This document shows, piece after piece, positions 39 to 29,514 of a stretch of 30,829 nt of DNA (position 1 is the stretch's first letter; every line of letters begins with the position of its first letter). The notes under the pieces are model-generated. The model saw only the letters and a program-made list of their open reading frames with translations, made no database searches and was not told where the DNA came from. The translations under genes were made by a program, and so were the position numbers. The stretch comes from Myxococcota bacterium (lineage in GTDB: Bacteria > Myxococcota_A > UBA9160 > UBA6930): positions 1 to 30,829 of the forward strand of contig DATAGA010000195.1 of NCBI GenBank assembly GCA_036257215.1, in the 5' to 3' direction.

Positions 39-680
39 ATGCCGCTGCTCCACGCCCTCGCCGCGCTCGCTCTCGCTCTCTCCGCCGCTCCCGCGCTCGC
101 TGGCACCGAATCACAGGTCGTCTACGACACGTTCGACCTGAACGACGGCGACACGGACGCCATCATCGGCCAGTTCCAGGCGAACGACCTCCAGCTCGCC
201 TACCCGTTCGTCCCGCAGAAGGGAGTCCGGGCCCTGCTCGAGACGGTGACGCTCCGACTGCGCCACTCGCCCGACGCCGCGGTCATGAAGGGCGACTTCA
301 TCGTTCGGCTGCGCGAGGACGACGGCGGGGAGCCGGGCCCGGTGCTCGAGGAATGGACGTTCACGGACGTCCTCAACTCCGAGACCAACGTCGAGTTCGT
401 GTCTGTCGCGCAGCCGGTCATCGAAGGCGAGCAGACGTACTGGCTGAACGTCCTGATCGCGCCCGCCACCGGCCAGGGGCTCTGGATCTCGGCGCAGCCG
501 CGCACGCGTGACCTCTTGTTCGCCACGACCGGCGGGCTGGACCCGGTCTGGCAGGAGCCCCCGAACCCGTTCCTGATCGGCTTCGCGAGCGTGGTGGTGC
601 CCGAGCCGGCGCAGCTCTGCCTCGCCCTCGTCGGCGCGCTGGTGCTCGCGCCGTTCGGCCGCCGCCGGACCAGGGCCTGA
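39..680 (+). CDS. PEP-CTERM sorting-domain surface protein (213 aa); body resembles choice-of-anchor R-type domains
   Basis: N-terminal signal peptide (MPLLHALAALALALSAAPALA). C-terminal VPEP, hydrophobic helix, then RRR (VVVPEPAQLCLALVGALVLAPFGRRRTRA). The SD supports ATG 39 over the track's GTG 30. Confidence 0.85.
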   Translation: MPLLHALAALALALSAAPALAGTESQVVYDTFDLNDGDTDAIIGQFQANDLQLAYPFVPQKGVRALLETVTLRLRHSPDAAVMKGDFIVRLREDDGGEPGPVLEEWTFTDVLNSETNVEFVSVAQPVIEGEQTYWLNVLIAPATGQGLWISAQPRTRDLLFATTGGLDPVWQEPPNPFLIGFASVVVPEPAQLCLALVGALVLAPFGRRRTRA

Positions 681-2710
681 GCGCGCGCGGCGCGGAAGGC
701 GCCGCGGAGGTCGCGAGTCCGCCCGGCCCGCTCGCGCCGCTGCGCGCGCGAGCGGTTCCGGCCGCGGCCGTGCTGCTGGCGCTGCTCTTCGCGCTCGCAG
801 TCGGGCTGCGGCTCCACGGCTTCTCGATCTCGATCTGGCGCGACTGGACCGACGGCTCGCCCGCCCACGAGCTCGTCCTCGGACGCCCACAGCCCGCCCG
901 CATCGACGACTACGCGGTGATCCTGCCGCTCGCGCTGGCGCAGGAGCGCCACCAGCCGCCCTTTCCCGTCGTGAACACGAACGTCGGGCAGGGTCACAAC
1001 ATGCTGCTGCCGTTCTCGCTCCCGGTGTGGCACCCCGTCGCGCTCTTCAAGCCCGACACGTGGGGCTTCTTCCTCGGCGCCGACGTCGGGATGGCGTGGC
1101 GCTGGTGGTCCCGGGCGCTCGGGCTCGCGGGCGCCGCCTGGCTGCTCCTGCTCGTCGTGACCGGCGGCGACCGCGCGCTCTCCGCCGCCGGTGCGCTGTT
1201 CCTGCTCGGCTCGCCCTTCTACCAGTTCTGGGCTCTCCGGCCGGCTCCCGTTACGATCCACGCCGCGCTGCTCGTGCTCGGCGCCCTCGCCGTCGCGTTC
1301 GCGCGGCGGCGCGCGGCGATCGTCCTCGGCGGGCTCCTGCTGGGCTACGCGGCGGTCGGCTTCGCGCTCGTGCTGTATCCGCCCTTCCAGGTGCCGCTCG
1401 CGACGCTGGCGCTGCTCCTCTTCGGGGCGCTGGTCTTCGTCCACCGGGGACACCTCGACCTGCGCGCGTGGCTCGGCTGGCGCGTCGCGGCCGCGCTCCT
1501 CGCCGCGCTCGTGGTCGCGGCCGGGGCCGCGCTCTTCCTCGGCGCGGCGGGCGACGCCTTCGAGACGATGCGCCACACGGTCTACCCGGGGAACCGCGTG
1601 TCGGTGGGCGGGAACCGCCCGGTCGCGGCGCTCTTCGCGGCCGACGTCGGCGTGCCGCTCCTCACGGACCGCTACGGGCCGCTGCTCAACGTCTGCGAAG
1701 CGGCCGGGTTCTGGCTGCTGTCGCCCGCGCTCGTCGCCGCCGCGCTCGCGCGCGCCGCGGCCGAGCGGCGGCGCCCCGACGCGCTCGTCGTCGCGCTCGC
1801 GGCGGCGTGGCTCGCGCTCGTCGCCCACGCCGCGGTCGGCATCCCGGCGTGGCTCGCGCGCGCGAGCGGGTGGAGCTACGTGCCGGGTCACCGCTCGGTG
1901 ATCGCGCTCGGCGTCGCCGAGGTGCTGCTGCTCGCGCGGCTCCTCGCGCGCCCGCTTCCGGTGAGGGGAGCCACGCGGGCGGGGCTCGCCCTCGCGTGGG
2001 GCGCCGCGATCGCGGCGTGCGGCGCAGCGCTCTCGACGCTGCTCGGGGGATTGCCGGCTGGCGGCGTCGCCGCGTTCGCCGCGGCGAACGCGGCGCTGGT
2101 CTGGCTCGCGCTCGCGCCGCGCCGGCCCTGGCACGCGCTCGCGGCCGCGGCGGCCGCCTCGTGGCTCGTGGCCGGCTGGTTCAACCCGCTCGTGCGCGGC
2201 GGCGCCGACGCGGTGCAGGGAAACGAGCTGGCGCGCGCGGTGCAGGAAATCGACGCGGCGAGCGGCGGCGACACGGTCTGGGTCGCGTTCGGCAACCTCG
2301 GCCTCGGCAACCTCTTTCGCGCCGTCGGCGTCCGTTCCGTGAACGGAGTCCAGCCCGTGCCGCAGCTCGAGCTCTGGCGCACGATCGACCCGGACGGCAG
2401 CGAGGAGGAGGCGTACAACCGCTACGCCCACGTCCTCTTCGGCGCGTCCGCCGACCCGGAGCCGCGCTTCGAGCACACGGCGCCGGACGCCTTCCGCATC
2501 TACGTCGACCCCACGTCGCCGGCGATGCAGAAGCTCGGCGTCACGCACCTCGTGATCGGCGCGCCGCAGGCGCGCCGGCTGGCCGAACGCGGCGGCGCGG
2601 TGTGGGTGCGCTCCGCGGGGCCCTATCACATCCTGCGCGAGCCCTGGGTCCCCGCCCCGCCGGGCGGCGCGGCGGCGGCCGCCGCACCCGCGCGCGAGCC
2701 CGCGCCGTGA
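677..2710 (+). CDS. Polytopic membrane protein, putative GT-C glycosyltransferase; start at CTG 677 or GTG 770
   Basis: Many hydrophobic helices, an acidic RIDDY motif in the first extracytoplasmic loop, TVYPGNR motif, soluble C-terminal domain. The frame is open from CTG 677, which overlaps the upstream TGA. Confidence 0.7.
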   Translation: MSARGAEGAAEVASPPGPLAPLRARAVPAAAVLLALLFALAVGLRLHGFSISIWRDWTDGSPAHELVLGRPQPARIDDYAVILPLALAQERHQPPFPVVNTNVGQGHNMLLPFSLPVWHPVALFKPDTWGFFLGADVGMAWRWWSRALGLAGAAWLLLLVVTGGDRALSAAGALFLLGSPFYQFWALRPAPVTIHAALLVLGALAVAFARRRAAIVLGGLLLGYAAVGFALVLYPPFQVPLATLALLLFGALVFVHRGHLDLRAWLGWRVAAALLAALVVAAGAALFLGAAGDAFETMRHTVYPGNRVSVGGNRPVAALFAADVGVPLLTDRYGPLLNVCEAAGFWLLSPALVAAALARAAAERRRPDALVVALAAAWLALVAHAAVGIPAWLARASGWSYVPGHRSVIALGVAEVLLLARLLARPLPVRGATRAGLALAWGAAIAACGAALSTLLGGLPAGGVAAFAAANAALVWLALAPRRPWHALAAAAAASWLVAGWFNPLVRGGADAVQGNELARAVQEIDAASGGDTVWVAFGNLGLGNLFRAVGVRSVNGVQPVPQLELWRTIDPDGSEEEAYNRYAHVLFGASADPEPRFEHTAPDAFRIYVDPTSPAMQKLGVTHLVIGAPQARRLAERGGAVWVRSAGPYHILREPWVPAPPGGAAAAAAPAREPAP

Positions 2711-4086
2711 GCGCCGGGCCCTTTGCGCGTCCGCTGGCGCTCGCGCTGCTCGCGCTCGCGCTCGGGGCCTGCAGACGGCACGAGCCGCAGGCGGACGTCG
2801 TGCTCCTCACCGTCGACACGCTGCGCGCCGACCGGCTCGGGCTCTACGGCTCCGGCCGCGGGCTCACGCCCGAGCTCGACCGCTGGTTCGCCGACGGGCT
2901 CGTCCACGAGCGCGCGTGGGCGTCGTCGGCGTCCACGTCGCCGAGCATCGTGACGCTGCTCTCCGGGCTCTACCCCGGTGAGCACGGCGTTCGGCTCCTC
3001 TACGAGCGGGTGCCCGCAGACGTACGGCTGCTGACGGACCACCTGCCCGACGCCTACCAGACGGCGGCCTTCGTCTCGAACGTCGTGCTCAGCGATCCGG
3101 CGCTCGGCATCGCGGACCGCTTCGACCACTACGACGACACCGTCGACGAGCGCGAGTCCGGCCGCGAGGTGTACGAGCGCCGCGCGTCGCGCACGACGGA
3201 CGCCGCGCTCGCGTGGGTCGAGAGCCGGGCGGAGCGCGACCGGCCGCTCTTCCTCTGGCTCCACTACATCGACCCGCACGGCCCCTATCGCGCGCCCGAC
3301 CCGTGGGCGGGCCGGCTGAGCCACCGCGGCAGCGTGCCGGTCCAGGGCGACCGGATCCTCGCGTACATGCGCCTCCCCGGCGTCGCGGACGCGCTCGAGT
3401 ACGTCGACCGCTACGACGAGGAGGTCGCCTACGTCGACGCCGAGATCGGCCGCCTGCTGCGCGCGCTCGAGGAGTCGCGCGGGCTCGAGCGCACCCTCGT
3501 CGCGTTCACCGCCGACCACGGCGAGACGCTGACGGAGCGGCGGCTGTGGTTCCGCCACGGCTGGCACGTGTACGAGGAGCTCGTGCGCGTGCCCCTCCTC
3601 CTGCGCGGCCCGGGCGTCGACAAGGGGCGCAGCGCCGCACCCGTCTCGGGCGTGGACGTCGCGCCTACGCTGCTGCGACACGCCGGCGTGACGCCGCCGC
3701 CCGGCTGGAGCGCGGTCGACCTGCGCCGGGCCGATGCCGCGCCGCCGCAGCGCGCGGTCTTCAGCGAGGCCACGCTCGCCGACGGCCGCTGGCTCGCGGC
3801 GCGGCGCGGCGGCGCGAAGGCGATGCTGCAGGTCGCGCCCGAGCGCCGCCTCGGCGCGAGCGTCGCCGTCGACCTCGCGCGCGACCCCGGCGAGGAGCCG
3901 CTCCGGCTCGCGGCCCCCGGCGACCCGCTCGTCGCCGAGCTCGCCGCGCGCGCCGCGCACGAGCCGCCGCTCGTCGCGGACGCCGCCGGCGCGCGCGACG
4001 GCCCGCGCCCGACGGGCGCGGACGTCGACCCGCGCGTGCGCGGCGAGGCGCTCGAGCAGCTGCGCCAGCTCGGCTACGTCGAGTAG
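2707..4086 (+). CDS. Sulfatase-fold (alkaline phosphatase superfamily) lipoprotein, 459 aa, with Thr at the formylglycine position
   Basis: GTGA overlap with the upstream stop; lipobox LGAC; VDTLRAD; STSPSIVTLLSG; HYIDPHGPY; TADHGE; C-terminal LRQLGYVE. This is the C-terminal part of track ORF 1027..4086. Confidence 0.85.
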   Translation: MSAGPFARPLALALLALALGACRRHEPQADVVLLTVDTLRADRLGLYGSGRGLTPELDRWFADGLVHERAWASSASTSPSIVTLLSGLYPGEHGVRLLYERVPADVRLLTDHLPDAYQTAAFVSNVVLSDPALGIADRFDHYDDTVDERESGREVYERRASRTTDAALAWVESRAERDRPLFLWLHYIDPHGPYRAPDPWAGRLSHRGSVPVQGDRILAYMRLPGVADALEYVDRYDEEVAYVDAEIGRLLRALEESRGLERTLVAFTADHGETLTERRLWFRHGWHVYEELVRVPLLLRGPGVDKGRSAAPVSGVDVAPTLLRHAGVTPPPGWSAVDLRRADAAPPQRAVFSEATLADGRWLAARRGGAKAMLQVAPERRLGASVAVDLARDPGEEPLRLAAPGDPLVAELAARAAHEPPLVADAAGARDGPRPTGADVDPRVRGEALEQLRQLGYVE

Positions 4087-4101
4087 CCCGCCCGGCGCCC
4101 C

Positions 4102-5952
4102 TCAACCCGGCGGCGCAGCGTCCGTCGTCGCGGGTGGCGCGCCGGGGAGCGCCGTCGGCGCGGCGGTCCGCGCCGCCTCCGCGGGCCAGCTCACGCGGAA
4201 CACGCGCGCGTCGCGATAGCGCGGGCCGCGCGCGCCGAGGCGCGGCGGCGCGAACGGATGACCCAGCCCGGGGAAGCGATGCCAGAAGAGCTCCGGGCGG
4301 TTCTCCCACAGCGTCTCGGGCAGCTCGGCCACGAGCTCGAGCCGGGCCCCGCGCGCCGCGAGCCGGGCCCGCAGCGCCTCGAGCGGCTGGCCGAGCAGGA
4401 GGAACGGGTAGCCGAGGAAGGCCTCGTTGCCGCCGCGCCAGACGATCCAGTCGGCGTCGTCGACGTCGAAGACGTAGCGCGGCAGCTCCCGTCTGCGCGC
4501 GTGGGCGTAGACCGGCGCGGAGGGATCGATGCGCATGCCCAGCCCGAGGTCGCTGTAGTAGTAGAGGCCGTCCCAGCCGAAGTTCGTGAGCACGACGTCG
4601 TCCCGCGCGGCGCGCTCGCGCAGGAGACCGACGAGCGGATGCAGCGTTCCCGCGTCCGGCGCGCCGAGACCCCGCACGAAAGCCCACCACGGCACGTTGA
4701 AGAGCTTGGCGCCGAGGTCCCGCGGCACGGAGACGGCCACGCCTGCGAGCCGCCGGCTGTGACCGAGCGCGAGCCAGGGCAGGGCGCTCCCCGCCAGCTG
4801 CGTCGCGGCGAAGAGCGCGAGCACGGCTGCGTACGCCGCCGCACTCCTTCCGCTCGCGCGGGCGACGAGGACGCCGCTCACGGCGGCCGCGACCGGCAGC
4901 ATGCCGCACACGTAGCGGAGGCCCACGACCTCGAGCAGCGACGCGGACAGCGCGAGCGGCGCGAGCGCGGCGCAGGCGACGAGCCAGGCGGCGCAGAGCG
5001 CGAGCAGCGTGCGGTCGCCCGGCCCCAGGCGCCGCCGGACGAGCGGGAGCCCGATCGCCCAGCCGAGCGCGGGCACCGCGACGCTCGCCTCGGCGGCGAG
5101 CTGTCCGATCCGGCGCGGCCACTCCGCCGCGCTCCCGAGCGGCTCCCAGTTGACGCGCGTGCCCGACCAGGCGAGCAGCAGCCACGCCAGGGTCAGCGCC
5201 GCGACGAACGGGGCGCGCGCCAGGAGCGCGGGAAGCCGCGGGCGGAAGGCCGGGTGGAGCAGCGCCAGCCCGGCGCACGCGGCGAGCGCGACGGCGACGG
5301 GGAGGACCTGCACGTAGAAGAGGAGCACCGCGGCGACGGCGAGCCAGGGATCGCGCCGGCGTTCGCCGAGGCGCAGGAACCCGGCCAGGAGCACGACGGT
5401 CAGCAGCATGTTGGGGGCGTAGCTGCGCGCCTCGCGTCCGAACAGCAGGAACTGCGCGGAGGCGAGCAGCAGCAGCCCGGCGGCGAACGCCGCGCGGGCC
5501 GACCCGGTCGTGCGCAGGACGAGGCCGTAGAGCGCGGCCACCGTCGCGAGGGCCACGAGCGCAAAGGGAAGCCGCGCGGCCCACTCCGACTCGCCGAAAA
5601 GGGCGAAGCTCGCGGCCGCCACGTAGTAGGGAAGCCAGGGCGTCCCGACGAGCACGAAGTCGTGCCCGAGCGCGTGCGGCGCGACGCGCATGCCGTCGTC
5701 GCTGTCGACGAAGCTGCGCCCGTCCCACGCGGTCGGCAGCCCGTCGCGCACGATGGCCCGCGCGAACAGCGCGGTGTCGGCCTCGTCCTCCCACAGCCAG
5801 GGCCCGCCCAGGTCGGTGAACAGCAGCGCCGCCGCCGCGGCGAGCAGCACGAGGAGCGGAGCCAGCCGGCGAGCGCGATCGCCCGCAAGACCCACGGCGC
5901 CGCGCGCGTCCGGCGTTCGCGCGCCTGCGCCGCGCTGCGGATCCGAAGTCAC
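4102..5952 (-). CDS. ArnT/PMT-like GT-C glycosyltransferase, 616 aa
   Basis: LWEDEADTALFAR loop after TM1, GTPWLPYY, ARLPFAL, QFLLFGREARSYAPN, multiple TM helices and a soluble C-terminal domain. Confidence 0.85.
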   Translation of the reverse strand: MTSDPQRGAGARTPDARGAVGLAGDRARRLAPLLVLLAAAAALLFTDLGGPWLWEDEADTALFARAIVRDGLPTAWDGRSFVDSDDGMRVAPHALGHDFVLVGTPWLPYYVAAASFALFGESEWAARLPFALVALATVAALYGLVLRTTGSARAAFAAGLLLLASAQFLLFGREARSYAPNMLLTVVLLAGFLRLGERRRDPWLAVAAVLLFYVQVLPVAVALAACAGLALLHPAFRPRLPALLARAPFVAALTLAWLLLAWSGTRVNWEPLGSAAEWPRRIGQLAAEASVAVPALGWAIGLPLVRRRLGPGDRTLLALCAAWLVACAALAPLALSASLLEVVGLRYVCGMLPVAAAVSGVLVARASGRSAAAYAAVLALFAATQLAGSALPWLALGHSRRLAGVAVSVPRDLGAKLFNVPWWAFVRGLGAPDAGTLHPLVGLLRERAARDDVVLTNFGWDGLYYYSDLGLGMRIDPSAPVYAHARRRELPRYVFDVDDADWIVWRGGNEAFLGYPFLLLGQPLEALRARLAARGARLELVAELPETLWENRPELFWHRFPGLGHPFAPPRLGARGPRYRDARVFRVSWPAEAARTAAPTALPGAPPATTDAAPPG

Positions 5953-5960
5953 CGGGCGGC

Positions 5961-5989
5961 ACGCTATGCGAGGCCCCCCTCCGTCGCAA
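5961..5989 (-). promoter_or_regulatory. Sigma70-type promoter TTGCGA-N17-TAGCGT, 8 nt before GTG 5952
   Basis: Both boxes are read directly from the minus strand, with an exact 17-nt spacer. Confidence 0.65.
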
Positions 5990-6035
5990 CGAAGCGAGCG
6001 TCGAGTCGTGGGCCCTCCTGTGGTAAGGATCCCGC

Positions 6036-19822: not shown

Positions 19823-19836
19823 CGAAGCTCGCGCTC

Positions 19837-20703
19837 CTAGCGCCCGGCCGCGTCCGCGGGACGGACGTTGAGTCCCGCGACCTTCACGCCGAGCGGACCG
19901 CGCGGCACGCCGACGCGCACGCGCTGGCCGGCGCGCTCGACCTCGAGCTCGACGCGCTCGTTGAGCCGGCCGCCCCGGGTCGATCCGACGAGCTCCTCGG
20001 GGTGGAAGAGGCGCGCGCCGTCGTAGGCGTAGACGACGTCGCCCGGCTCGAGGCCCGCCGCCTCGGCGGCCGAGCGCCCGAGCACGCTCTGCACGACGAC
20101 GCGGTTCGGGCGGCCGGTCGAGTAGAGGAGCCAGTCCCAGGTGGGGTCGCCGCGCTCGCGGCGCACCGCGGAGAGCCGCTCGTCGAGCACGGCGAGCTCG
20201 CCCGCGAGGCGCTCCTCCGGCCAGCGCTCGCGCTTGGCGCGGTCGCGGACGTCGAGGCGCTCGAGCTCCGTCGCCTCGAACAGCTCGCGCAGCTCCGCTC
20301 CGTCGCGCTCCGTCAGCCCGGACGCGGCGAAGCGCGCCGGGTCGAACGCGGGCTCGGACGCGGGCAGCTCGCTTCCCGGGAGGAGCGCCGCGGCGTCCGG
20401 CCCCTCGCGCCCCGTCGCGGGAGACGCGTCGACTCCCGTCGCGGCGTCCGCCCCGCCGGAGTCCTCCACCGCGACGGGCGGGTCGGCGCCGCGCGAGCGC
20501 GCGCGCAGCGCCGCCACCTCCCGTTCGCGCAGCGCGACCTCGCGCTGGAGACGCGCGAGCTCCGTACGCCCGTCGTCGAGCTGGGCGCGAAGGTCCGCCA
20601 GCTCCTGCACGGGATCCGGCGACGCGAGCGAGTCCCGCGCGCGCTCGCACGCCGGCAGCAGCGCGGCGAGCGCCAAGAGCGCGAGCCAGCGCGCGCGCGG
20701 CAC
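19837..20703 (-). CDS. Lipoprotein with a coiled coil and C-terminal PDZ domain, 288 aa
   Basis: Lipobox LPAC; heptad segment ELADLRAQLDDGRTELARLQREVALREREVAAL; PDZ signature VVVQSVLGRSAAEAAGLEPGDVVYAYDG...VELEVER. Confidence 0.8.
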   Translation of the reverse strand: MPRARWLALLALAALLPACERARDSLASPDPVQELADLRAQLDDGRTELARLQREVALREREVAALRARSRGADPPVAVEDSGGADAATGVDASPATGREGPDAAALLPGSELPASEPAFDPARFAASGLTERDGAELRELFEATELERLDVRDRAKRERWPEERLAGELAVLDERLSAVRRERGDPTWDWLLYSTGRPNRVVVQSVLGRSAAEAAGLEPGDVVYAYDGARLFHPEELVGSTRGGRLNERVELEVERAGQRVRVGVPRGPLGVKVAGLNVRPADAAGR

Positions 20704-20707
20704 CGCT

Positions 20708-21904
20708 TCAGCGCCCCGCGCCGGCGGGCCAGCGGGACGCGAGCGCCGGCGCCGCCAGCAGGTAGTCGTACAGCTGGCGCGCCACCCAGTCGTTGCCGAG
20801 CGGCGTCAGGTGTCCGACCGCGGCGCGATACGGCAGCGCGCCCGGCTTGATGAAGAGCGGCTCCACCGACGCTCGCGACATCCGCCGCAACCCCTCTACG
20901 AGGTCGAGGTAGGCGATCCCGCGGGCGGCCGCCTCGCGGGCCGCGAACGCGCGCCAGGCGTCCGAGTCCTTGCCCCGGTAGTCCGGCGGCGTCGGCAGCG
21001 CGAGCAGCACGAGCTGGCTGCCCTTGGCGCGGTTGGCGGCCTCGAGCTCGTCGAGCACGCGGCCCACGAGCTCCAGCGTGACGGGGTCCTGCGCGGGCGC
21101 CGCCGGCCGCACGGGAGGCCGCGCTCCGTCGCCGCGGCCGGTCAGCCGCCCGAGCAGCTCGCGCGCGCGCAGCCCGCCCGTCGCGTGCGCGAGGCGCTCG
21201 CCGAGCCCCGCGTAGAAGCGGCGCTGCGGCACGGGCGTGTTCTCGACCGCGAGCGCCCCGTTCCGCACGGCGAGGACGGGCTTTCCGTAGCCGAGGAAGC
21301 TCGTCTCCTGCATCCGCCGGAAGTCGTCGAGGATGAAGGCGAACACGTGCACGTCGTGGGCGAGCGGCGCGCCGTCGCGCCGATACCACAGGTACGCCTG
21401 GTCGATGCCGTAGCCGGCCTGTCCCATGTTGACGCTCTCGAGGCGCGCATCGAGCGCCTCGAGCCGCGCGCACCAGGTCTGGTCGTTCGCGACGCCGTAG
21501 CCCAGGGTGAACGAGTCGCCCGAGCACACGACGCGCAGGCGCCCCGGCGGCACCTCGGGCGCGTACTCGTGGTCGGCGCGGAAGCCCTGGCGGTTCGTCT
21601 CGAGCCAACCCCCCGGGCCGTACAGGTCGTCCACGCGGATCGCGGGAACGTGGGACCAGCCGAGCTCGGGGTCGTAGCGCGTGTGCTGCAGCCGGGCGAG
21701 CGGCCGCTCGCCGCTGCCGGCCGCGTCGAGGACGAGGAGCGCGAGGCTGCTTCCGCCCTCGAGGAGGAGGAACGCGGCAACGGGGACGAGCACCGCTGCG
21801 AGCGCCGCGGCGGCGACCCGCGGTCTCCGCGTCCTGCGAGCGCCCCGCAAGGCGCGCGCTTCGGTGTCGGAGTCGGGCGTCGAGCGCGGCGGTTCGGCAG
21901 CCAA
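20708..21904 (-). CDS. Membrane-anchored SGNH/GDSL-fold protein, candidate O-acyltransferase or esterase (398 aa; start uncertain)
   Basis: Single N-terminal TM helix, TNRQGFR, block I CSGDSFTLG, block II NMGQAGYG, terminal GHLTPLGN. TTG 21904 is preceded by TATCCT at 7 nt. Confidence 0.8.
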   Translation of the reverse strand: MAAEPPRSTPDSDTEARALRGARRTRRPRVAAAALAAVLVPVAAFLLLEGGSSLALLVLDAAGSGERPLARLQHTRYDPELGWSHVPAIRVDDLYGPGGWLETNRQGFRADHEYAPEVPPGRLRVVCSGDSFTLGYGVANDQTWCARLEALDARLESVNMGQAGYGIDQAYLWYRRDGAPLAHDVHVFAFILDDFRRMQETSFLGYGKPVLAVRNGALAVENTPVPQRRFYAGLGERLAHATGGLRARELLGRLTGRGDGARPPVRPAAPAQDPVTLELVGRVLDELEAANRAKGSQLVLLALPTPPDYRGKDSDAWRAFAAREAAARGIAYLDLVEGLRRMSRASVEPLFIKPGALPYRAAVGHLTPLGNDWVARQLYDYLLAAPALASRWPAGAGR

Positions 21905-22031: not shown

Positions 22032-24224
22032 TCAGGGCCACGGCGCGAGGGCGCCGGGGCGGCCGCCGAGCGACGCGCTCCCGTAGTGCCCGAGGAGCGC
22101 GACGGTCTCCGCGTGGGTGAGCAGCGGGAAGCCGAGGAGGAGCCTCTCGAGCCGCTCCTGCGGCAGCCCCGCCGCGGCGCGCCGGGAGATCGCAGCGATC
22201 CGCGCCGCGCGCGCAACGGACGGAGCCGTGCGCTGGAGCGCGGCGGCCTCGTCGCGCGCCTCCTCGACGCGACCCGTCCGCAGCAGCGCGTAGACGAGGC
22301 TGCGGCGAGCGGGGGCGGAGTCCCCTCCCAGCGCCAGCGCGCCGCGCGACGCGTCGATCGCCGCGTTCCACGCACCGGCGACCGCGTACGCCTGCGCCAA
22401 CGTCTCGGCGGCCGCGAGCGCGGCCGCGCCGTCGCCGCGCGACGCAGCCTCGCGCAGCGCGGCCTCGTCGAGCGGGAGGAGCCGCCATGCGCGCGCGAAG
22501 GCGGGCGCCTCGCGCATGACCCGCTCGGGCTCGAAGCCGACCTCGGGGTCGAACGGGACGCCGCGCTCCCGGTAGAACGCGGCCGCCCGCTCGAGGTTGG
22601 CCCGCCCGGCCGCGCGCCGGACGTAGATCGCTTGATCCACCGCGCGGAAGACGGGCACCCAGTCCGGGTCGCCCGCGAGGTGGTCGGCGGTGTACACGCC
22701 GAGCCCGATGCCCGCGCCGACGGGCACCGTGCCGACGCCGAAGAAGACGTCCACGCCGCGCCGGTCGAGCACGTCGCGGTGGCTGGTTTCGCCGCGGCGC
22801 GCGCCGACGCGGCCCGAGACCGCCTGCGCGTCTTCGAGGACGTCCGGCGCGTAGTGCTCGGTGCGCCCGTCGACGAACGTGCGCAAGCGCGGCGCGAGCC
22901 ACCAGCCCAGGTAGCCGCCCATCCAGTAGTGGTTGAACAGCCGGCCCTCGAGCCCGGCGTCCGACAGGAAACGGACGCCCTCCGCATGGTACTTGCGCGC
23001 GACGTGAGGGCGGGCGAGGTACTCCCGCGGCGCTTGCGGCAGGAGCCCGGTCCAGCGCTGGACGCCCCCCGCCGCGTGGAACGCGAGCGCGAGCGCGACG
23101 CTCGCCACCGCGCAGGCGGCGTCCCAGGCGCCGCTGCGGTCCGGCGCGGCGCGGGGGAGCGCGCGCAGCCCGTAGAGGAGCGGCAGGAAGGCGAGCCAGC
23201 GGAAGCGGATCGAGACGAGGATTGCCGCGAACGCCGCGAGGCCGAGCCCGAAGCCCTGTGCGTCGAACGCCGCGAGGTGGGCCGCGTCGCGTCGGCGCCA
23301 GCCGCGGGCGAGCGCTCCGCCTGCGAGGCCGACGAAGGCGAGCGCGAGCGCGTCCGTCAGCGCCCAGGCGACGGGGTTCTCGGCGTAGCCCCCCGCGCGC
23401 CACGAGAGGGGGTCGAAGTGGATCCACTCGTCGCGCACCTGCCACACGGCGGTGTCGCGCGAGGAGTGCAGGAAGGTGAGGTGCTGCGCGGGACCGCGCG
23501 GGTTCGCGAGGGCGGCCAGCGCCCCGAGCGCGAGCGCTGCCGCGAGGCGCCGCGCGCGCAAGCGGCGGGCCGCGCGCCCGGGATCCGTCGCGACGGCGCG
23601 CGCGAGCGCGGCTTCGACGCCCAGGCCGAGCAGCGCGGCGACGACGAGCGCGAGTCCGACCATGACGAGCGAGTGCACGTTGGCCCAGAGCGCGCAGAGC
23701 GCCGCGAAGGCCGCGACGCGTCGCCAGGACGGGGGCGCGGCCGGAGCGAAGAGCAGCGCGTACGTCGCGAGCGCCGCGGCGATGCTCGCGAGGTCCGGGC
23801 GCAGCTGGCCGAGGCGCCACCACGAGAGCGCGAGCCACACCGACGTCGCGAAGAGCGCGGCGGCGGCCGACGGTGCGGCGCGGCGCAGGGTCGCGTAGGC
23901 CGCTGCCGCGAGGCCCAGCACGGCGAGCGCGTGGAGCGCGCGCAGTCCGTGCAGCCCGAACGCGCGCTCCACCGCGTAGACCGCGACGCCGAACGCCCAC
24001 TCGTGCTGCACCGGCGCGTCGGCGTGCGCGGTGTGAAGGAGAGGGTCTCGGGCCGGCCAGGGGCCCTCGCTCGCGTAGGAGCGGCCGGCGCCGAGGTGGA
24101 ACCAGAGGTCGTCGGTCGCGATGGGGCCCGCCGCGACGAGGAGGAGCGGGAGCAGGACGGCCGCCAGACCGGCGAGGGCGACCGGCGTCGCCGCGCGGCG
24201 AGGGCCCGAGAGCGAAGTGCTCAA
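22032..24224 (-). CDS. Putative GT-C glycosyltransferase with C-terminal TPR-like helices, 730 aa
   Basis: TTGA overlap with the upstream stop; ATDDLWFHLGAGR and HEWAFG loop motifs; many TM helices; GRLFNHYWMGGYLGW...FVDGR; TPR-like LAQAYAVAGAWNAAIDASRGAL...RSLVYALLRTGRVEEA. Confidence 0.75.
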   Translation of the reverse strand: MSTSLSGPRRAATPVALAGLAAVLLPLLLVAAGPIATDDLWFHLGAGRSYASEGPWPARDPLLHTAHADAPVQHEWAFGVAVYAVERAFGLHGLRALHALAVLGLAAAAYATLRRAAPSAAAALFATSVWLALSWWRLGQLRPDLASIAAALATYALLFAPAAPPSWRRVAAFAALCALWANVHSLVMVGLALVVAALLGLGVEAALARAVATDPGRAARRLRARRLAAALALGALAALANPRGPAQHLTFLHSSRDTAVWQVRDEWIHFDPLSWRAGGYAENPVAWALTDALALAFVGLAGGALARGWRRRDAAHLAAFDAQGFGLGLAAFAAILVSIRFRWLAFLPLLYGLRALPRAAPDRSGAWDAACAVASVALALAFHAAGGVQRWTGLLPQAPREYLARPHVARKYHAEGVRFLSDAGLEGRLFNHYWMGGYLGWWLAPRLRTFVDGRTEHYAPDVLEDAQAVSGRVGARRGETSHRDVLDRRGVDVFFGVGTVPVGAGIGLGVYTADHLAGDPDWVPVFRAVDQAIYVRRAAGRANLERAAAFYRERGVPFDPEVGFEPERVMREAPAFARAWRLLPLDEAALREAASRGDGAAALAAAETLAQAYAVAGAWNAAIDASRGALALGGDSAPARRSLVYALLRTGRVEEARDEAAALQRTAPSVARAARIAAISRRAAAGLPQERLERLLLGFPLLTHAETVALLGHYGSASLGGRPGALAPWP

Positions 24225-26293
24225 TCGGCCCCCGGCACACCCGCGGCGGGCGCGGACGCGCGCGCGTCGGCTGCGTCGACGAACCAGGGGCTCGACCACG
24301 CGGCGCCGCCGTCGACCTGGACGACGCGCAGGTAGGGCGCCTCGCCCCGCGCCAGCGCGACGGTCGCCTCGAGCGCGAGCTCCCGGGGCGCCGCGTCGGG
24401 CTCGAAGCGCCGCAGCGCCCACGCCTGCGTGCCGCGCACGAGGTCGACCGCCGCGATCGGCGCCGGCGCCGTCACGCGCGCGCGTAGGATGCGCTCGCCC
24501 GGCGGGAGCGCGGAGCCCATGGGGCGACCACCGAGCTCCGCTTCGAGCAGGATGCGGGGCCCGTTCGTCGCGTAGCAGCGACGCGCGCCGAGCGCCTCGC
24601 GCACACCCTCGCGCGTCGCCTGCTCGGCGAAGAGCGCCGCGAGCCCGCCGCTGCGCCCGGCGAGCTGAGCGAGGCCGGGGTGGCCGTCGTGCGAGTCGCC
24701 GCTCCCGACGAAGCCGAGCCGGGCACCCCGCGCGATCACGTCGCGGACGAAGTTGCCCTGGATCCCGCCCGCTACGGGCACGGGCCCTTCGGGCGACTCG
24801 CTGCTCCCGTGCACGGAAACGACCTCCGTCACCGGCTCGAGCTCGGGATCCGGCGCGAAGCGCCAGTTCGTCGCGACGGGCTCCCCCGCCGAGTGGTGCG
24901 CGAAGGTGAACGCCGGCTCGCCGCGCAGCGACGCCCACAGCTCGGCGGGATCGTCGGTCGCCTCGTCGAGCGAGCTGCGGATGCGGCCGCGGTCCGCGAA
25001 CCAGAGCACGTGGCGGTGACCGTGAAGCCAGCTCGTCCACTCGTAGCCGAGGAGGGTGACGAAGCGCCCGGGCTCGTGGAAGCGTGCGGTGGCGGCCTCG
25101 ATGCGCGCCCAGAGCGCAGGCGTCTCGTCCAGGAAGGGCGTGCCCCAGTGATCGTGGTCGGTGAGGGCCGCGACGTCGAGGCCCGCGACGTCGCGGGCGT
25201 AGCGGAAGTAGTCCTCGGGCGTGCCGGTGCCGTCGGAGAAGTGCGAGTGGCCGTGGAGGTCTCCCCACAGGAGGCGCGGCGCGTCCGCCGCGACGCGCAG
25301 CGGGTTGCTCTCCGCGCGCAGCCCCCCCGGCCCCTCGGCGCGCACGCGCGCCACGCCCTCGCCGCGGACGCGCGCCGGAGCGGCGACGACGCCGCCGGCG
25401 TCGGCTGGAAGCTCGAGCGCGGCCGGCAGCTCGAGCGGCCCGTCCGCCGCGAGCGCGATCGTCCCCGACGCCGGCGCGCCCGCGCTCCCGAGCGCGTCGA
25501 GCACCGCGAGGCGCAGCGTGACCGCGTCGCCGGCGCGCGCGGTCGACGGCAGCGTCGCGACGAGGAGCGCCGGGGGTCCCGCGGCCACGTCGACGGTGGG
25601 CGGGTCGGCGAGGAAGCCGCGCGTGCCGTCGCCGTCGCCGTCGACCGCGAACGGGATCGGTGCGGCGCGCTCGGCGAAGCGGTCCACCTGCGCGCCCGCC
25701 GCGCCCGCGCCGTAGACGAGCTCGATGCGCTCGCCGGCCCCGAGCGCGCGGCCGGCGATCTCCACGGCGAGCAGGCCCTGGTCGACGACGCGCGGGCGCA
25801 GGTCGACCCCGGCGGCGTCGCTGCTTGCCTCCGTGTAGCCCGGCGCCGCGGGATCGGCCGTCTGCGGTTCGCTCCAGCCCCAGCTCGGGGGGACCTGGAA
25901 GTAGAGCGCGCCGCCGACGGCGATGCCGAGCGGACCGGCCTCGTAGCGGAAGGGCAGCCGCGCCGGCGCGCCGGCGACGAGCCGCGGCGGCTCGCCGGGG
26001 AAGGCGAGCGCGGCGCGTCCGGCGCCGTCCGCCGGCGAGCGGACGGCCGCGCGCCCCGAGAGCAGGGCGGCGTGGACGTCGACGCGCGCGTTGGGCGAGA
26101 GGTCACTCGCGAGCGCGTCCGCGCCGGCGCGCGCGTCGACCGCGCCCGCGGCCGGCGCTTCGGCCCGGACGGCGTCCGCCGTCGGCGCGGGGAGCTCGGC
26201 CGGCTCGCCGCACCCGGCGCCGAAGGCCAGCGCGAGCAGCGCCGGCGCCGCGAGCGCCTCGCGCGCGGCGCGCCGACCCGAACCCCGCCGCAG
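24221..26293 (-). CDS. PHP-like metallohydrolase lipoprotein (DUF3604 / CehA-McbA-like), 690 aa from CTG 26293
   Basis: WGDLHGHSHFSDG, LTDHDH, GYEW, HRHV, AHH, GSGDSHDGHPG metal motifs. The frame stays open 528 nt upstream of the track's GTG 25765 and encodes a signal peptide with lipobox GAGC. Confidence 0.8.
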   Translation of the reverse strand: MRRGSGRRAAREALAAPALLALAFGAGCGEPAELPAPTADAVRAEAPAAGAVDARAGADALASDLSPNARVDVHAALLSGRAAVRSPADGAGRAALAFPGEPPRLVAGAPARLPFRYEAGPLGIAVGGALYFQVPPSWGWSEPQTADPAAPGYTEASSDAAGVDLRPRVVDQGLLAVEIAGRALGAGERIELVYGAGAAGAQVDRFAERAAPIPFAVDGDGDGTRGFLADPPTVDVAAGPPALLVATLPSTARAGDAVTLRLAVLDALGSAGAPASGTIALAADGPLELPAALELPADAGGVVAAPARVRGEGVARVRAEGPGGLRAESNPLRVAADAPRLLWGDLHGHSHFSDGTGTPEDYFRYARDVAGLDVAALTDHDHWGTPFLDETPALWARIEAATARFHEPGRFVTLLGYEWTSWLHGHRHVLWFADRGRIRSSLDEATDDPAELWASLRGEPAFTFAHHSAGEPVATNWRFAPDPELEPVTEVVSVHGSSESPEGPVPVAGGIQGNFVRDVIARGARLGFVGSGDSHDGHPGLAQLAGRSGGLAALFAEQATREGVREALGARRCYATNGPRILLEAELGGRPMGSALPPGERILRARVTAPAPIAAVDLVRGTQAWALRRFEPDAAPRELALEATVALARGEAPYLRVVQVDGGAAWSSPWFVDAADARASAPAAGVPGAD

Positions 26294-26297: not shown

Positions 26298-28133
26298 CTA
26301 CTCGACCGTGACGCTCTTCGCGAGGTTGCGCGGCTGGTCGACGTCGGTGCCCTTCAGCATGGCGACGTGGTAGGCGAGCAGCTGCAGCGGAATCGTCGCG
26401 AGGACGGCGGTCAGGTACTCGCCGAGGTCGGGCACGTACACGACGTCGTTCGCCTTCTGCGCGATCGTTTCGTCGCCCTCACTCGCGATCGCGATCACCT
26501 GCCCGTCGCGCGCCCGCACCTGTTCGAGGTTCGAGATGACCTTGTCGTAGATCGGGCTCCGGGTCGCGATCACGACGACCGGCATGTTCTCGTCGATCAG
26601 CGCGATCGGCCCGTGCTTCATCTCGCCGGCCGCATAGGCCTCCGCGTGGACGTACGAGATCTCCTTGAGCTTGAGCGCTCCCTCGAAGGCGATCGGCACC
26701 ATGACGCCGCGCCCGAGGTAGAGGAAGTCGCGGGCGTGGACGTACTTGTGCGCGATCTCCCGCACGGAGTCGTCGAGCCGCAGCACGCGCTCGACGAGGC
26801 GCGGCAGGCGCAGCAGCTCCTCCACGCGCCGGCGGCCCTCCTCGCGGGAGAGCGCGCCGCGGGCGAGGCCGAGCTTCACGGCGATCATGTAGAGCGCGAC
26901 GACCTGGGTGGTGAAGGCCTTCGTACTCGCAACGCCGATCTCGGGCCCCGCGTGCGTATAGAGCACGTCGTGGCTCTCCCGCGCGATCGTCGCGTCGCGC
27001 ACGTTGCACACGGCGAGCACGCGCGCGCCCTGGGCCTTGCCCTCGCGCAGCGCGGCCAGCGTGTCGGCGGTCTCGCCCGACTGCGAGACCGGCACGACGA
27101 GCACGTCCTCGCCCAGGATCGGGCGGCGGTAGCGGAACTCGCTGGCCAGGTCGACCTCGCACGGGATCCCCGCGAGCTGCTCGATCAGGTACTTGCCGAC
27201 GAGGCAGGCGTGCCAGGCGGTGCCGCAGGCGACGAGCGCGATGCGCTTCGTGCGCGCCACGCGGGCGGGCGAGAAGTCGATGCCGTCGAGGTCGAGGTCG
27301 CCCTCGGTCTCGAGCACGCGCGTCCCGATCGTGTCCGTGATCGCGCGCGGCTGCTCGTAGATCTCCTTCTGCATGAAGCGGTCGTAGCCGGCCTTCTCCG
27401 CCGAGACCGCGTCCCACTGGATCGCGCGCGGCTCGCGATCGACCGGGCGGCCGTCGCGGTCGAGCACCTGGACGCCGTCGATCGAGAGCACCGCGAACTC
27501 GCTGTCCTCGAGGAAGAGCATCTGCCGCGTGTAGGGCAGGATCGCGGGGATGTCGCTCGCGAGGAAGCTCTCCTTCTCGCCGAGCCCGAGGACGATCGGG
27601 CTCCCGCCCTGCTTGGCGACCACGATGTGGTCCGGGTGCTCCTCGCACAGCACGCCGAACGCGTACGAGCCCGTCACGCGCGCGCAGGCCTCGCGGACGG
27701 CGGACACGAGGTCGGCTCCCGCGCGCAGCCGGTCGTCGATCAGGTGCGCGATGAGCTCGGTGTCGGTGTCCGAGGCGATCTCGTGGCCCGCGGCCTCGAG
27801 CTCGGCGCGCAGCTCGCGGTAGTTCTCCATGATGCCGTTGTGCACCACGACGACGGAGCCCGCCTTGTGCGGGTGCGCGTTGCGCTCGGAGGGCTTGCCG
27901 TGCGTCGCCCAGCGCGTGTGGCCGACGCCGACGCGGCCGGGGAGCGGCCGATCGCGCAGGACCGCCTCGAGGTTGCCGAGCTTGCCGACGGCGCGCCGGA
28001 TCGCGATGCGGTCGCCCTCGATGATGGCGACCCCCGCCGAGTCGTAGCCCCGGTACTCGAGGCGCCGGAGCCCGTCGAGCAGCACCTCCTGCGCCGTCCG
28101 ACCGCTGCCGACGTAGCCCACGATTCCGCACAT
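26298..28133 (-). CDS. glmS: Glutamine--fructose-6-phosphate transaminase (isomerizing), 611 aa
   Basis: MCGIVG N-terminus, EYRGYDSAG, GHTRWATHG, HNG, SQSGETADT, EGALKLKEISY, GEMKHGP, PRNLAKSVTVE; GGGAG upstream. Confidence 0.98.
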   Translation of the reverse strand: MCGIVGYVGSGRTAQEVLLDGLRRLEYRGYDSAGVAIIEGDRIAIRRAVGKLGNLEAVLRDRPLPGRVGVGHTRWATHGKPSERNAHPHKAGSVVVVHNGIMENYRELRAELEAAGHEIASDTDTELIAHLIDDRLRAGADLVSAVREACARVTGSYAFGVLCEEHPDHIVVAKQGGSPIVLGLGEKESFLASDIPAILPYTRQMLFLEDSEFAVLSIDGVQVLDRDGRPVDREPRAIQWDAVSAEKAGYDRFMQKEIYEQPRAITDTIGTRVLETEGDLDLDGIDFSPARVARTKRIALVACGTAWHACLVGKYLIEQLAGIPCEVDLASEFRYRRPILGEDVLVVPVSQSGETADTLAALREGKAQGARVLAVCNVRDATIARESHDVLYTHAGPEIGVASTKAFTTQVVALYMIAVKLGLARGALSREEGRRRVEELLRLPRLVERVLRLDDSVREIAHKYVHARDFLYLGRGVMVPIAFEGALKLKEISYVHAEAYAAGEMKHGPIALIDENMPVVVIATRSPIYDKVISNLEQVRARDGQVIAIASEGDETIAQKANDVVYVPDLGEYLTAVLATIPLQLLAYHVAMLKGTDVDQPRNLAKSVTVE

Positions 28134-28167
28134 CTGGATGGTCTCCCTGCGCCGGCCGGGCCGGCTC

Positions 28168-29514
28168 CTACGACGCCGGCTCGCCCGGCTTCGCCGGCCG
28201 GGCGCGCCGCGCCGCCCAGCCCTCGAGGTTTCGCTGCCGCCCGGTAGACACCGCGATGGCATCGGTCGGCACGGTCTTCGTCACCGTCGTCCCGGCCGCG
28301 ACGAACGCGCCCGGCTCGATCTCGATCGGAGCCACGAGGTTGGCGTTGCAGCCGATGCGCGCGCCCGCGCCCACGCGGGTGCGGTGCTTGCGCTCCCAGT
28401 CGTAGTTCACGGTGATCGAGCCCGCGCCGAAGCTGGCGCCCGGCCCGACGTCGGCGTCGCCGATGTAGCTCAGGTGGTCGGCCTTCACGCCCTCGCCGAG
28501 CTCGCTGTTCTTCACCTCGACGAAGTTCCCGACCCGCACGCGGTCGTGCAGCCGGCAGCCGGGCCGCAGGTGCGCGCTCGGACCGAGCTCGCAGTCGTCG
28601 CCGATCCGGCTCGCCTCGATCACGCAGTGCGGCTTCACGTGGCAGCGTTCGCCGATCCGCGTCGTGCCCGTGATCCGCACGCTCGGCTCGATCACCGTGT
28701 CGCGGCCGACCTCGACGTCGGCGTCGAGCCAGGCGCTCGCGGGGTCGACGAAGGTGACGCCCTCGGCCATGAGCCGCTCGACCGTGCGGCGGCGCGCGAC
28801 GGTGGCGGCCTGCGCCAGCTCGCGCCGGTCGTTCACGCCGAGGCACTCGTCCGCGTCGTCGAGCAGGAGCGCCTCCACGCGGCGGCCCTCCGCCACGACG
28901 CGCTCGACCACGTCCGTCAGGTAGAGCTCGCCCTGCTGGTTCTGGTCGTCGAGCTGCGCGAGGCACTTCCAGAGCAGCTCGGCGCCGAGGAGGTACACCC
29001 CCGTGTTGCCCTCCTGGATGCGCAGCTCTTCGGGCGAGGCGTCGGTCACTTCGACGATGCGCTGCACGCGCCCGGCGGCGTCGCGGACGACGAGGCCGGG
29101 GAGCGGGATCGGCGAAGTGAGCATCACGAGGTCGGCGCGCCTCTCCGCCTTGCAGGCGCGCATGCGCTCGAGCGTCTCGGGACGCAGGAGCGGCACGTCG
29201 CCGTAGAGGACGAGCACATCGCCCCGGTGGTCCCGCAGCGCGGGCTCGGCTTGCTGCACCGCGTGACCCGTGCCGTTCTGCTCGGCCTGGACCACGAAGC
29301 GCGCGCGGCCCTCGAACGCCGCCGCCACCTTCTCCGCGTCGCGCCCGATCACGACGACGAGGGCGTCGGGCCGCAGCGCCTCCGCCGCGGCGAGCGGCCA
29401 ACCGAGAAGGGGACGACCGGCGACGTCGTGGAGGACCTTCGCCACGTCCGACTTCATGCGGGTGCCCTGCCCGGCAGCCAGGATCACCACCGCAAGGCTC
29501 GTAGGAGGCGCCAT
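28168..29514 (-). CDS. glmU: Bifunctional UDP-GlcNAc diphosphorylase / glucosamine-1-phosphate N-acetyltransferase, 448 aa
   Basis: ILAAGQGTRMKS, EQNGTGHA, YGDVPLL, GELYLTD, GVNDR, hexapeptide repeats, GNFVEVK, HLSYIGDA, NYD. Start is ATG 29514 (or ATG 29526). Confidence 0.97.
   Translation of the reverse strand: MAPPTSLAVVILAAGQGTRMKSDVAKVLHDVAGRPLLGWPLAAAEALRPDALVVVIGRDAEKVAAAFEGRARFVVQAEQNGTGHAVQQAEPALRDHRGDVLVLYGDVPLLRPETLERMRACKAERRADLVMLTSPIPLPGLVVRDAAGRVQRIVEVTDASPEELRIQEGNTGVYLLGAELLWKCLAQLDDQNQQGELYLTDVVERVVAEGRRVEALLLDDADECLGVNDRRELAQAATVARRRTVERLMAEGVTFVDPASAWLDADVEVGRDTVIEPSVRITGTTRIGERCHVKPHCVIEASRIGDDCELGPSAHLRPGCRLHDRVRVGNFVEVKNSELGEGVKADHLSYIGDADVGPGASFGAGSITVNYDWERKHRTRVGAGARIGCNANLVAPIEIEPGAFVAAGTTVTKTVPTDAIAVSTGRQRNLEGWAARRARPAKPGEPAS

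Follow-up and report, generated by a model that had tools for sequence, protein, structure and literature searches.

The stretch of DNA analyzed here (30,829 nucleotides (nt), referred to as the window in the following) is contig DATAGA010000195.1 of the Myxococcota assembly GCA_036257215.1 and carries candidate genes for glycan decoration outside the cytoplasm: six membrane proteins predicted to adopt the glycosyltransferase C (GT-C) fold, two glycosyltransferases of family 2 (GT2), three sulfatase-fold lipoproteins and a PEP-CTERM protein. It is the longest contig of its source genome, a fragmented metagenome-assembled genome of 3.25 Mb with a completeness of 75%. In the labels used below, G stands for genomes (G000 being that of the window) and L for contigs or loci carrying homologues. 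As the DNA shows a G+C content of 72–78%, raw lists of open reading frames were of no use for gene finding; genes were called from frame plots of the G+C content at the third codon position (GC3) and named by Pfam and NCBIfam scans. Including the start of hflX, 21 genes were called:

g01, 39–680, plus strand: small secreted protein combining a choice-of-anchor R domain with a PEP-CTERM tail
g02, 770–2710, plus strand: predicted GT-C fold membrane protein with DUF7657 and periplasmic DUF7654 (Pfam, 308 and 94 bits)
g03, 2707–4086, plus strand: Thr-type lipoprotein of the alkaline phosphatase superfamily (sulfatase fold; PF00884, 153 bits)
g04, 4102–5952, minus strand: predicted GT-C, PMT_2/ArnT-like (PF13231, 38 bits, above cut-off)
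g05, 6036–8384, plus strand: predicted YfhO-like GT-C (Pfam YfhO, 24 bits, C-terminus only)
g06, 8381–10144, plus strand: predicted GT-C, PMT_2/ArnT-like (PF13231, 33 bits, above cut-off)
g07, 10099–10548, minus strand: small DUF2304 membrane protein of the GacJ/Rv3632 family (PF10066, 64.5 bits)
g08, 10559–11254, minus strand: GT2 resembling polyprenyl-phosphate glycosyltransferases, partner of g07
g09, 11236–11964, minus strand: S-adenosylmethionine-dependent methyltransferase (Methyltransf_11, 60 bits), heading the g09-g08-g07 operon
g10, 12051–12758, plus strand: DPM1/AglJ-like GT2 (PF00535, 136 bits)
g11 (uvrD/pcrA helicase), 12787 to about 14970 (start approximate), minus strand: housekeeping (UvrD-helicase, 315 bits)
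g12, 15062–16399, plus strand: Thr-type sulfatase-fold lipoprotein (PF00884, 150 bits)
g13, 16350–18374, minus strand: predicted GT-C, PMT_2/ArnT-like (PMT_2, 23.7 bits, below cut-off)
g14, 18371–19822, minus strand: Thr-type sulfatase-fold lipoprotein (PF00884, 164 bits)
g15, 19837–20703, minus strand: PDZ-domain lipoprotein (PDZ_6, 31.8 bits; lipobox LLPAC)
g16, 20708–21904, minus strand: SGNH/GDSL-like protein, membrane-anchored at its N-terminus (Lipase_GDSL_2, 25.7 bits, short of the cut-off of 32.9)
g17, 22032–24224, minus strand: predicted GT-C for which Pfam has no model, ending in a periplasmic tetratricopeptide repeat (TPR) domain
g18, 24221–26293 (start probably CTG at 26293), minus strand: DUF3604/PHP-like lipoprotein, predicted phosphoesterase (DUF3604, 44.6 bits)
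glmS, 26298–28133, minus strand: SIS and GATase domains, protein beginning with MCGIV
glmU, 28168–29526, minus strand: NTP_transferase domain and hexapeptide repeats
hflX, after glmU, plus strand: start only, at the end of the window

Start and stop codons overlap by 4 nt in g02/g03, g05/g06, g14/g13 and g18/g17, indicating translational coupling; both g03 and g14 are thereby joined to a GT-C gene (g02 and g13, respectively). An earlier annotation made from the letters alone (the sequence-only reading) had listed most of these genes, and its DUF2304, methyltransferase, glmS and glmU genes are present as described, while its SGNH protein g16 is a weak match. The list had omitted uvrD/pcrA, the PDZ lipoprotein g15 and the DUF3604/PHP lipoprotein g18.

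Membrane proteins, lipid-sugar synthases and Thr-type lipoproteins

All six acidic motifs that had been quoted for the polytopic proteins are present, and each lies in the loop that follows hydrophobic segment 1 (RIDDY at residue 44 of g02, WEDEADT at 54 of g04, LSDE at 61 of g05, WSDEGDT at 53 of g06, VVDYGRE at 80 of g13 and TDDLWFH at 37 of g17). Hydropathy plots show 8–13 segments in each protein. Alignments addressing the conservation of the first-loop acidic residue cover the g02 and g17 families, with R44 and D46 being invariant among 32 g02 homologues and D39 and W41 among 40 g17 homologues.

The proposed GT-C class could be upheld for all six proteins, which are predicted to be GT-C-like on evidence that differs in strength from one to the other. 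g04 and g06, which are 47% identical to each other, were assigned by Pfam PMT_2 alone. For g02 and g17 AlphaFold2 models were built, which show 11–13 helices and a C-terminal soluble domain. The g02 model (32 homologues, predicted local distance difference test score (pLDDT) 93.7) was compared to the PDB using Foldseek and all of the top 12 matches were GT-C enzymes (AglB, ArnT, AftA, AftD, PglB, EmbB), with template modelling (TM) scores of up to 0.53. For the g17 model (40 homologues, pLDDT 90.5) the top 20 PDB matches were again all GT-C enzymes (STT3, PglB, AglB, AftA and the C-mannosyltransferase DPY19); after these came TPR proteins, which match the C-terminal part. g05 and g13 stay under the Pfam cut-offs and structures were needed for their assignment: comparing one predicted model with another, the Atlas structure of g05 shows a TM score of 0.87 to a cluster consisting of 92% YfhO, and that of g13 shows scores of 0.84 and 0.62–0.64 to PMT_2/ArnT clusters. 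A phmmer search of g04 against the PDB gave no match. Profile–profile comparison among the g17, g02, g13 and g05 families revealed no link (probabilities 0.2–3.6%), and therefore the kinship of the six proteins rests on fold and not on sequence. g17, without any match in Pfam or NCBIfam, belongs to a predicted GT-C family that Pfam does not cover, found almost exclusively in uncultured Myxococcota. Homologues of g17 nested among those of Myxococcota are also held by GTDB representatives titled Spirochaetales/Spirochaetaceae or Gammaproteobacteria (L040, L043, L050, L053, L055, L057, L058, L066, L068, L069; L018, L038, L042), titles that are probably mislabelled; one of the isolate names contains ‘MYXO’.

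The genome of the window contains 21 PMT_2-like matches; by chance, a stretch of 30.8 kb should hold about 0.2 of them. With three observed, in addition to the three other GT-C genes, the clustering of GT-C genes is real, though it lies within a genome-wide expansion.

Both GT2 come closest to polyprenyl-phosphate glycosyltransferases, which supports the class originally assigned to them. The best PDB matches of g08 are dolichyl-phosphate mannose synthase (DPMS, 5mlz) and ArnC, those of g10 are DPMS, ArnC and GtrB. In NCBIfam the best match of g08 is PpgS, whose 98 bits stay far under the equivalog cut-off of 370, and that of g10 is AglJ with 115 bits, below the cut-off of 325; g10 also matches the PgfS model weakly (70 bits). 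An equivalog-level match to a characterized GT2, as needed for sugar specificity, was found for neither of them. The DUF2304 gene g07 follows directly downstream of g08 in the same orientation. This pair is kept in the related contig L008, and the complete operon g09-g08-g07 (methyltransferase, GT2, DUF2304) is conserved in L008 and L011. Two DUF2304 proteins are known to activate such enzymes, as GacJ binds and stimulates the GlcNAc-P-undecaprenol synthase GacI in Streptococcus pyogenes and Rv3632 stimulates PpgS in Mycobacterium tuberculosis (10.1101/180810).

The three sulfatase-fold proteins are predicted to be exported and are of the Thr type as proposed, as seen from their lipoprotein signals (lipobox LGAC in g03 and WLAC in g12) and from a Thr at the formylglycine position. 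The corresponding sites are STSPSI in g03, WTVPSH in g12 and WTLPAH in g14, the latter aligned to the formylglycine site of 7stt. All three proteins share D37, T77, D270 and H271, so the metal-binding Asp, the Thr and the Asp-His pair are kept, and the Thr aligns with the nucleophile of solved sulfatases. Instead of the formylglycine motif C/S-x-P-x-R the sites read T-S-P-S-I, T-V-P-S-H and T-L-P-A-H, with the Arg replaced by His or Ile, and a function as sulfatases was rejected for this reason. An N-terminal multi-helix membrane domain of the EptA/LtaS/GacH type is not present in any of the three, which carry a lipoprotein signal only. Pfam additionally reports PF01663 matches for the sulfatase-fold proteins, and their T-x-P-x-H/..TGL motif resembles that of nucleotide pyrophosphatases/phosphodiesterases (NPP). 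Judging from these residues, g03, g12 and g14 are most likely phosphoester hydrolases or transferases. The genome contains 15 matches to the sulfatase family and, where the motif could be read (eight copies), seven belong to the Thr type, the sole C-T-P-S-R copy being located on contig C614; judged by this motif, the majority of the so-called sulfatases in the lineage cannot have that activity.

Conserved sub-modules and neighbouring PEP-CTERM genes

Synteny was first surveyed in 40 genomes from the family and order of the window, in which the genes of the window are patchy and mostly located on separate contigs; the sub-modules described below were seen in contigs from metagenomes. The sequence-only reading had proposed a single stepwise line of genes over 29.5 kb. 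As shown by this patchiness, by the lack of g04–g06 in L008 and by the housekeeping backbone in G038, the line is not a conserved unit. Co-conservation fails for the whole stretch and holds for the sub-modules g01-g02-g03, g17-g14-g13-g16 and methyltransferase-GT2-DUF2304. In G038 uvrD, glmS, glmU and hflX are contiguous, and thus g12–g18 represent an insert into a housekeeping backbone in the lineage of the window. uvrD, which was considered as a member of the system, belongs to this backbone and was rejected.

In L008, the closest syntenic contig (g02 70% identical), g01-g02-g03 are directly followed by the DUF2304, GT2 and methyltransferase genes. The segment g04–g06 (4102–10144) is absent there, corresponding to an indel of about 6 kb within the island. 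L011 shows the order glmU-glmS-g18-g17-g16-g15-g14-g13-uvrD, then g10, g09 and g08, with g12 being absent. In L009 the genes g01-g02-g03-g17-g14-g13-g16 form a compact cluster on one strand with nothing in between. Orthologues of g16 are thus found in both L009 and L011. P0009 (L010:10001–13366) is an in-frame fusion of a g02-type GT-C (DUF7657 and DUF7654) with a g03-type domain, comprising 1121 residues; it is known from one contig and may be an assembly or frameshift artefact. An orthologue of g04 with 65% identity (G017:C10:1570919–1572647; L005:10989–12645) shows matches in two adjacent frames, suggesting a frameshift or a sequencing error.

Similar neighbourhoods recur further away. g13 and g17 are paired in L009, L012, L019 and L030, the surroundings in L012 being otherwise unrelated, and in L013 g17 is found together with PMT_2, methyltransferase and sulfatase-fold genes. 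Of the 67 species-level loci of g17, 23 have a sulfatase-fold gene at a distance of up to 10 kb and 9 have a GT2 gene at this distance, with the cases being spread across the g17 tree; methyltransferase and GT2 genes occur near g17 in distant loci as well. The g02 homologue in G040 is flanked by four sulfatase-fold genes, and a distant pair of DUF7657 genes is clustered with GT2, DUF2304, methyltransferase, Wzx, RmlA and RmlC. When ten neighbours of the homologues that lacked an annotation were scanned with Pfam, just one weak GT87 and one weak TPR match appeared. From the modules of L008, L009 and L011, the P0009 fusion and the g17 and g02 neighbourhoods, the recurring unit is thus a GT-C with a Thr-type lipoprotein, which would be fed by a GT2 module with or without DUF2304 and methyltransferase. 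Close to the g17 cluster of L013 (GCA_028277885.1) we also observed a VanZ-like gene followed by an EpsI-family gene, and a gene for a Rce1/CPBP-like protease (287–2355, 7089–7787).

These data also bear on the explanation that there is no functional system at all and that two hugely expanded families, GT-C and Thr-type sulfatase-fold proteins, with unrelated substrates have been juxtaposed around uvrD-glmSU-hflX by chance or by inheritance within the lineage. The 21 PMT_2-like and 15 sulfatase-family matches of the genome, the poor synteny in relatives, the indel of g04–g06 and the contiguous uvrD-glmS-glmU-hflX of G038 would all be expected from this. What makes it improbable in our view are the start/stop overlaps, the g02-g03 fusion and the L009 cluster, which is rearranged yet compact, as well as the recurrence of GT-C, sulfatase-fold and GT2 neighbourhoods in G017, G038, G040, L013 and many g17 loci across the tree.

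The link to PEP-CTERM proteins starts with g01, which matches the choice-of-anchor R model NF041539 with 33.2 bits (cut-off 30) and PF07589 with 18.5 bits, below the cut-off of 20.7. Its tail consists of VVVPEP, a hydrophobic stretch and RRRTRA, and thus shows by eye the three parts of a PEP-CTERM signal. Two exosortase matches (PF09721, on C52 and C313) and at least 16 further PEP-CTERM matches were found in the genome, as the sequence-only reading would have expected; with so many of them, one adjacent PEP-CTERM gene means little alone. The comparative data provide support for the link, as PEP-CTERM or exosortase genes stand beside g02 or g17 homologues in other lineages. Orthologues of g01 with the same VVVPEP...RRR tail are located directly upstream of g02 in L008 and L009, and in G036, which represents a different family within the order, the gene directly upstream of the g02 orthologue on the same strand encodes a PEP-CTERM protein that shows no relationship to g01. 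Upstream of g17, PEP-CTERM reading frames on the same strand end within a few hundred bases in L023, L064 and L078, and g17 is directly adjoined by an exosortase-EpsI fusion gene in L050/L057 and L056/L068, which represent two separate clades. At 34–79 PEP-CTERM matches per genome of 5–6 Mb, about 2 per 1000 genes should have a PEP-CTERM gene immediately beside them on the same strand, and an exosortase gene should be a neighbour even more rarely. No P value is given for these adjacencies because the loci are not independent. Large spermine-synthase-like genes (about 1000 residues) were observed beside PEP-CTERM genes near g02 homologues (L010:16232–19366; L014:21560 onward). A literature search revealed no papers combining exosortase with GT-C and none on DUF7657.

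The same chemistry could also act on a polysaccharide or glycolipid made elsewhere, such as an exopolysaccharide, the O-antigen or core of lipopolysaccharide, or lipid A, with PEP-CTERM genes being nearby only because they cluster with exopolysaccharide loci. Models for this would be GacL/GacH acting on rhamnan, ArnT/EptA on lipid A and Rv3779 on arabinogalactan. It would fit that three of the GT-Cs are ArnT/PMT_2-like, that AftA, AftD and EmbB are among the structural matches and that the distant DUF7657 genes lie in a cluster with Wzx, RmlA and RmlC. SGNH enzymes typically act on O-acyl groups of polysaccharides, which counts in the same direction, as does the known tie of PEP-CTERM proteins to exopolysaccharide loci (Haft 2006, PMC1569441). 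A polysaccharide or glycolipid acceptor has to be taken seriously as an alternative, if a somewhat unlikely one, and several observations oppose it. The absence of Wzx, Wzy and an ABC exporter noted earlier is real, as Pfam scans found none of them and no priming transferase among the 21 genes of the window; likewise, priming transferase, Wzx/Wzy, ABC exporter and chain-length genes are missing from the window, L008, L009 and L011. Moreover, the best matches of g17 are protein-modifying GT-Cs and g17 bears a TPR domain, and PEP-CTERM genes that are not homologous lie directly upstream on the same strand. PEP-CTERM proteins are favoured as acceptors because of these structural neighbours and the TPR domain of g17, the recurrence of upstream PEP-CTERM genes and the absence of genes for a backbone polysaccharide from the window and the three contigs.

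The exosortase genes next to g17 in four loci also allow a scheme by analogy with glycosylphosphatidylinositol (GPI) anchoring, in which the genes would build a glycolipid anchor and the exosortase would transfer PEP-CTERM proteins onto it after cleavage of their tail. The composition would parallel the PIG mannosyltransferases (GT-C), the ethanolamine-phosphate transferases PIG-N/O/G (alkaline phosphatase superfamily, Thr) and DPM1, and glmS and glmU, for the supply of glucosamine, are in the same operon. We consider it highly improbable, as it is pure analogy with homology at the superfamily level only, there is no evidence of a lipid anchor for exosortase cargo, and neither a deacetylase nor an inositol-related gene is found here.

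Proposed glycan decoration and related systems

With a probability of roughly 0.5 we read the window as an accreted island of modules for glycan decoration outside the cytoplasm of an uncultured Myxococcota bacterium, which does not represent one fixed pathway and in which PEP-CTERM proteins are the most likely acceptors for two of the modules. The analysis shows the families, folds, motifs, gene coupling and recurrent neighbourhoods; which donor is used, which reaction the Thr-type enzymes catalyse and what the acceptor is are inferred. At the cytoplasmic face, g10 as well as g08 with its putative activator g07 would use a nucleotide sugar to charge polyprenyl phosphate with a monosaccharide. 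This sugar is probably an N-acetylhexosamine (HexNAc), because of the precedent of GacI and PpgS and the operon link to glmS and glmU, and the co-transcribed methyltransferase g09 may methylate it. A flippase would then move the lipid-linked sugar across the membrane, where the six GT-Cs (g02, g04, g05, g06, g13 and g17) would transfer sugars to periplasmic acceptors by means of the conserved Asp in the first loop. The Thr-nucleophile lipoproteins g03, g12 and g14 may attach a phosphoester group to the same glycan or cleave it off, with further editing possibly performed by the DUF3604/PHP phosphoesterase g18 and, on acyl groups, by the SGNH enzyme g16. For the modules g01-g02-g03 and g17-g14-g13-g16 the likeliest acceptors would be secreted PEP-CTERM proteins, for example g01, or the glycoconjugate into which they are sorted.

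Several points weigh against this reading. A flippase was not identified in the analysis, and both GT2 are too far under the equivalog cut-offs to name the sugar. Among the 40 relatives g02 is present in two, g13 in eight and g17 orthologues in about seven, g04 has one close orthologue, and g05 has a single weak match and no close orthologue; the complete gene set is restricted to near relatives. Most of the 67 g17 loci show no partner gene within 10 kb, and the distant pair of DUF7657 genes belongs to a polysaccharide cluster with Wzx, RmlA and RmlC. The genomes contain 34–79 PEP-CTERM matches each, and as PEP-CTERM genes are known from polysaccharide loci (Haft 2006, PMC1569441), the observed adjacency would be just as compatible with a polysaccharide acceptor. 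Comparing the occurrence of g17 and exosortase (phyletic profile) in 200 genomes of the phylum did not discriminate within the order, because g17 is confined to the order of the window and nearly all genomes there have exosortases, with or without g17.

A more far-reaching version would be that the g17-type and DUF7657 GT-Cs together with the coupled Thr-type phosphotransferase lipoproteins are a machinery dedicated to exosortase cargo, which glycosylates and phospho-decorates PEP-CTERM proteins in the periplasm of Myxococcota or builds the glycoconjugate to which the exosortase would transfer them. We regard this as unlikely but worth stating; if true, PEP-CTERM sorting would for the first time be connected with a defined post-translational pathway. 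Sorting by exosortases is widespread in environmental bacteria; for the steps after export of the cargo, the recurrent g17 family and the Thr-type lipoproteins beside PEP-CTERM and exosortase genes would provide concrete candidate enzymes, and g01 a small candidate substrate. Pairs of GT-C and alkaline phosphatase-fold proteins (one of them a fusion) as a recurring unit would extend the logic of the Gac, Pgf and Arn systems to Gram-negative myxobacteria.

The view that no described system has this composition was overstated, since the GacI/GacJ/GacL/GacH and Pgf machineries are close analogues (10.1101/337519; PMC5856776). Together with PpgS/Rv3632/Rv3779 these streptococcal systems are the closest known ones. 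The side chain of the group A carbohydrate requires GacI (GT2), GacJ (DUF2304), GacL (GT-C) and the phosphoglycerol transferase GacH (10.1101/180810; 10.1101/337519). There a GT2 and its DUF2304 activator make HexNAc-P-polyprenol, a GT-C transfers the sugar outside the membrane and a sulfatase-fold Thr enzyme adds a phosphoester, and all four types of components are present in the window. In contrast, the host of the window is a Gram-negative myxobacterium, its six GT-C genes are from four families, and its sulfatase-fold proteins are soluble lipoproteins without the membrane domain of LtaS or GacH, sometimes fused or coupled to a GT-C. Genes for a rhamnan or a Wzx-like GacK are also lacking from the locus and g08 is far under any equivalog threshold.

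In mycobacteria PpgS (Rv3631), Rv3632 (DUF2304) and Rv3779 (GT-C) are responsible for the decoration of arabinogalactan with galactosamine. PpgS is the closest NCBIfam model of g08, which is also adjoined by a DUF2304 gene, and in both cases a GT-C would consume a lipid-linked amino sugar; the differences are the score (98 bits against the cut-off of 370), the co-transcribed methyltransferase in the window and the acceptor. Lipid A is modified by ArnC (GT2), ArnT (GT-C) and the Thr-type phosphoethanolamine transferase EptA. The same three enzyme classes would act here, again at the periplasmic face, with g04, g06 and g13 being ArnT/PMT_2-like and ArnC being near g08 and g10, whereas genes for the synthesis of 4-amino-4-deoxy-L-arabinose and ArnE/F are absent from the window, the five-helix membrane domain found in EptA is missing from its Thr-type proteins, and the ArnT equivalog model of NCBIfam reaches just 16 bits.

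O-Glycosylation by the Pgf system of Streptococcus mutans involves PgfS (GT2), the two GT-Cs PgfM1 and PgfM2, and PgfE (PMC5856776; 10.1101/2024.05.05.592596). It likewise combines a GT2 lipid-sugar synthase with two GT-Cs that act on surface-sorted proteins, and the pair of g17 and g13 recalls the two PgfM proteins. Its cargo is of the LPXTG/sortase type, while it would be of the PEP-CTERM/exosortase type here, and the window lacks an epimerase and has phosphoesterase-type and SGNH enzymes. As in the PEP-CTERM/exosortase system (EpsH; PMC1569441), g01 shows a PEP motif followed by a hydrophobic helix and a basic tail, two exosortase matches are found in the genome and g17 homologues stand beside exosortase-EpsI; the exosortase loci described so far carry cytoplasmic GT1/GT4 enzymes, priming transferases and chain-length genes and not GT-C. 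What differs here from all these systems is the host group, the number and families of the GT-Cs, the Thr-type lipoproteins coupled or fused to GT-C and the exosortase context.

Gene starts and transcription signals

A terminator scan of the window gave a count not above chance. For g18 no ATG, GTG or TTG is present upstream of 25765, and both the coding-type GC3 and a lipoprotein signal (..LALAFGAGC) extend further upstream (25766–26293, minus strand), where CTG codons at 26293, 26239 and 26230 are the only options for a start. uvrD and g12 point away from each other across a short intergenic region (14965–15062); the longest reading frame of uvrD (to 15174) would overlap the start of g12, and the homologues suggest a uvrD start near 14965. 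The sole sigma-70-like promoter match within positions 1–20000 is TTGACC-17-TAGCAT (12000–11972, minus strand), which lies 7 nt before the ATG of g09 at 11964. Its position suggests that the mRNA of g09 may be leaderless.

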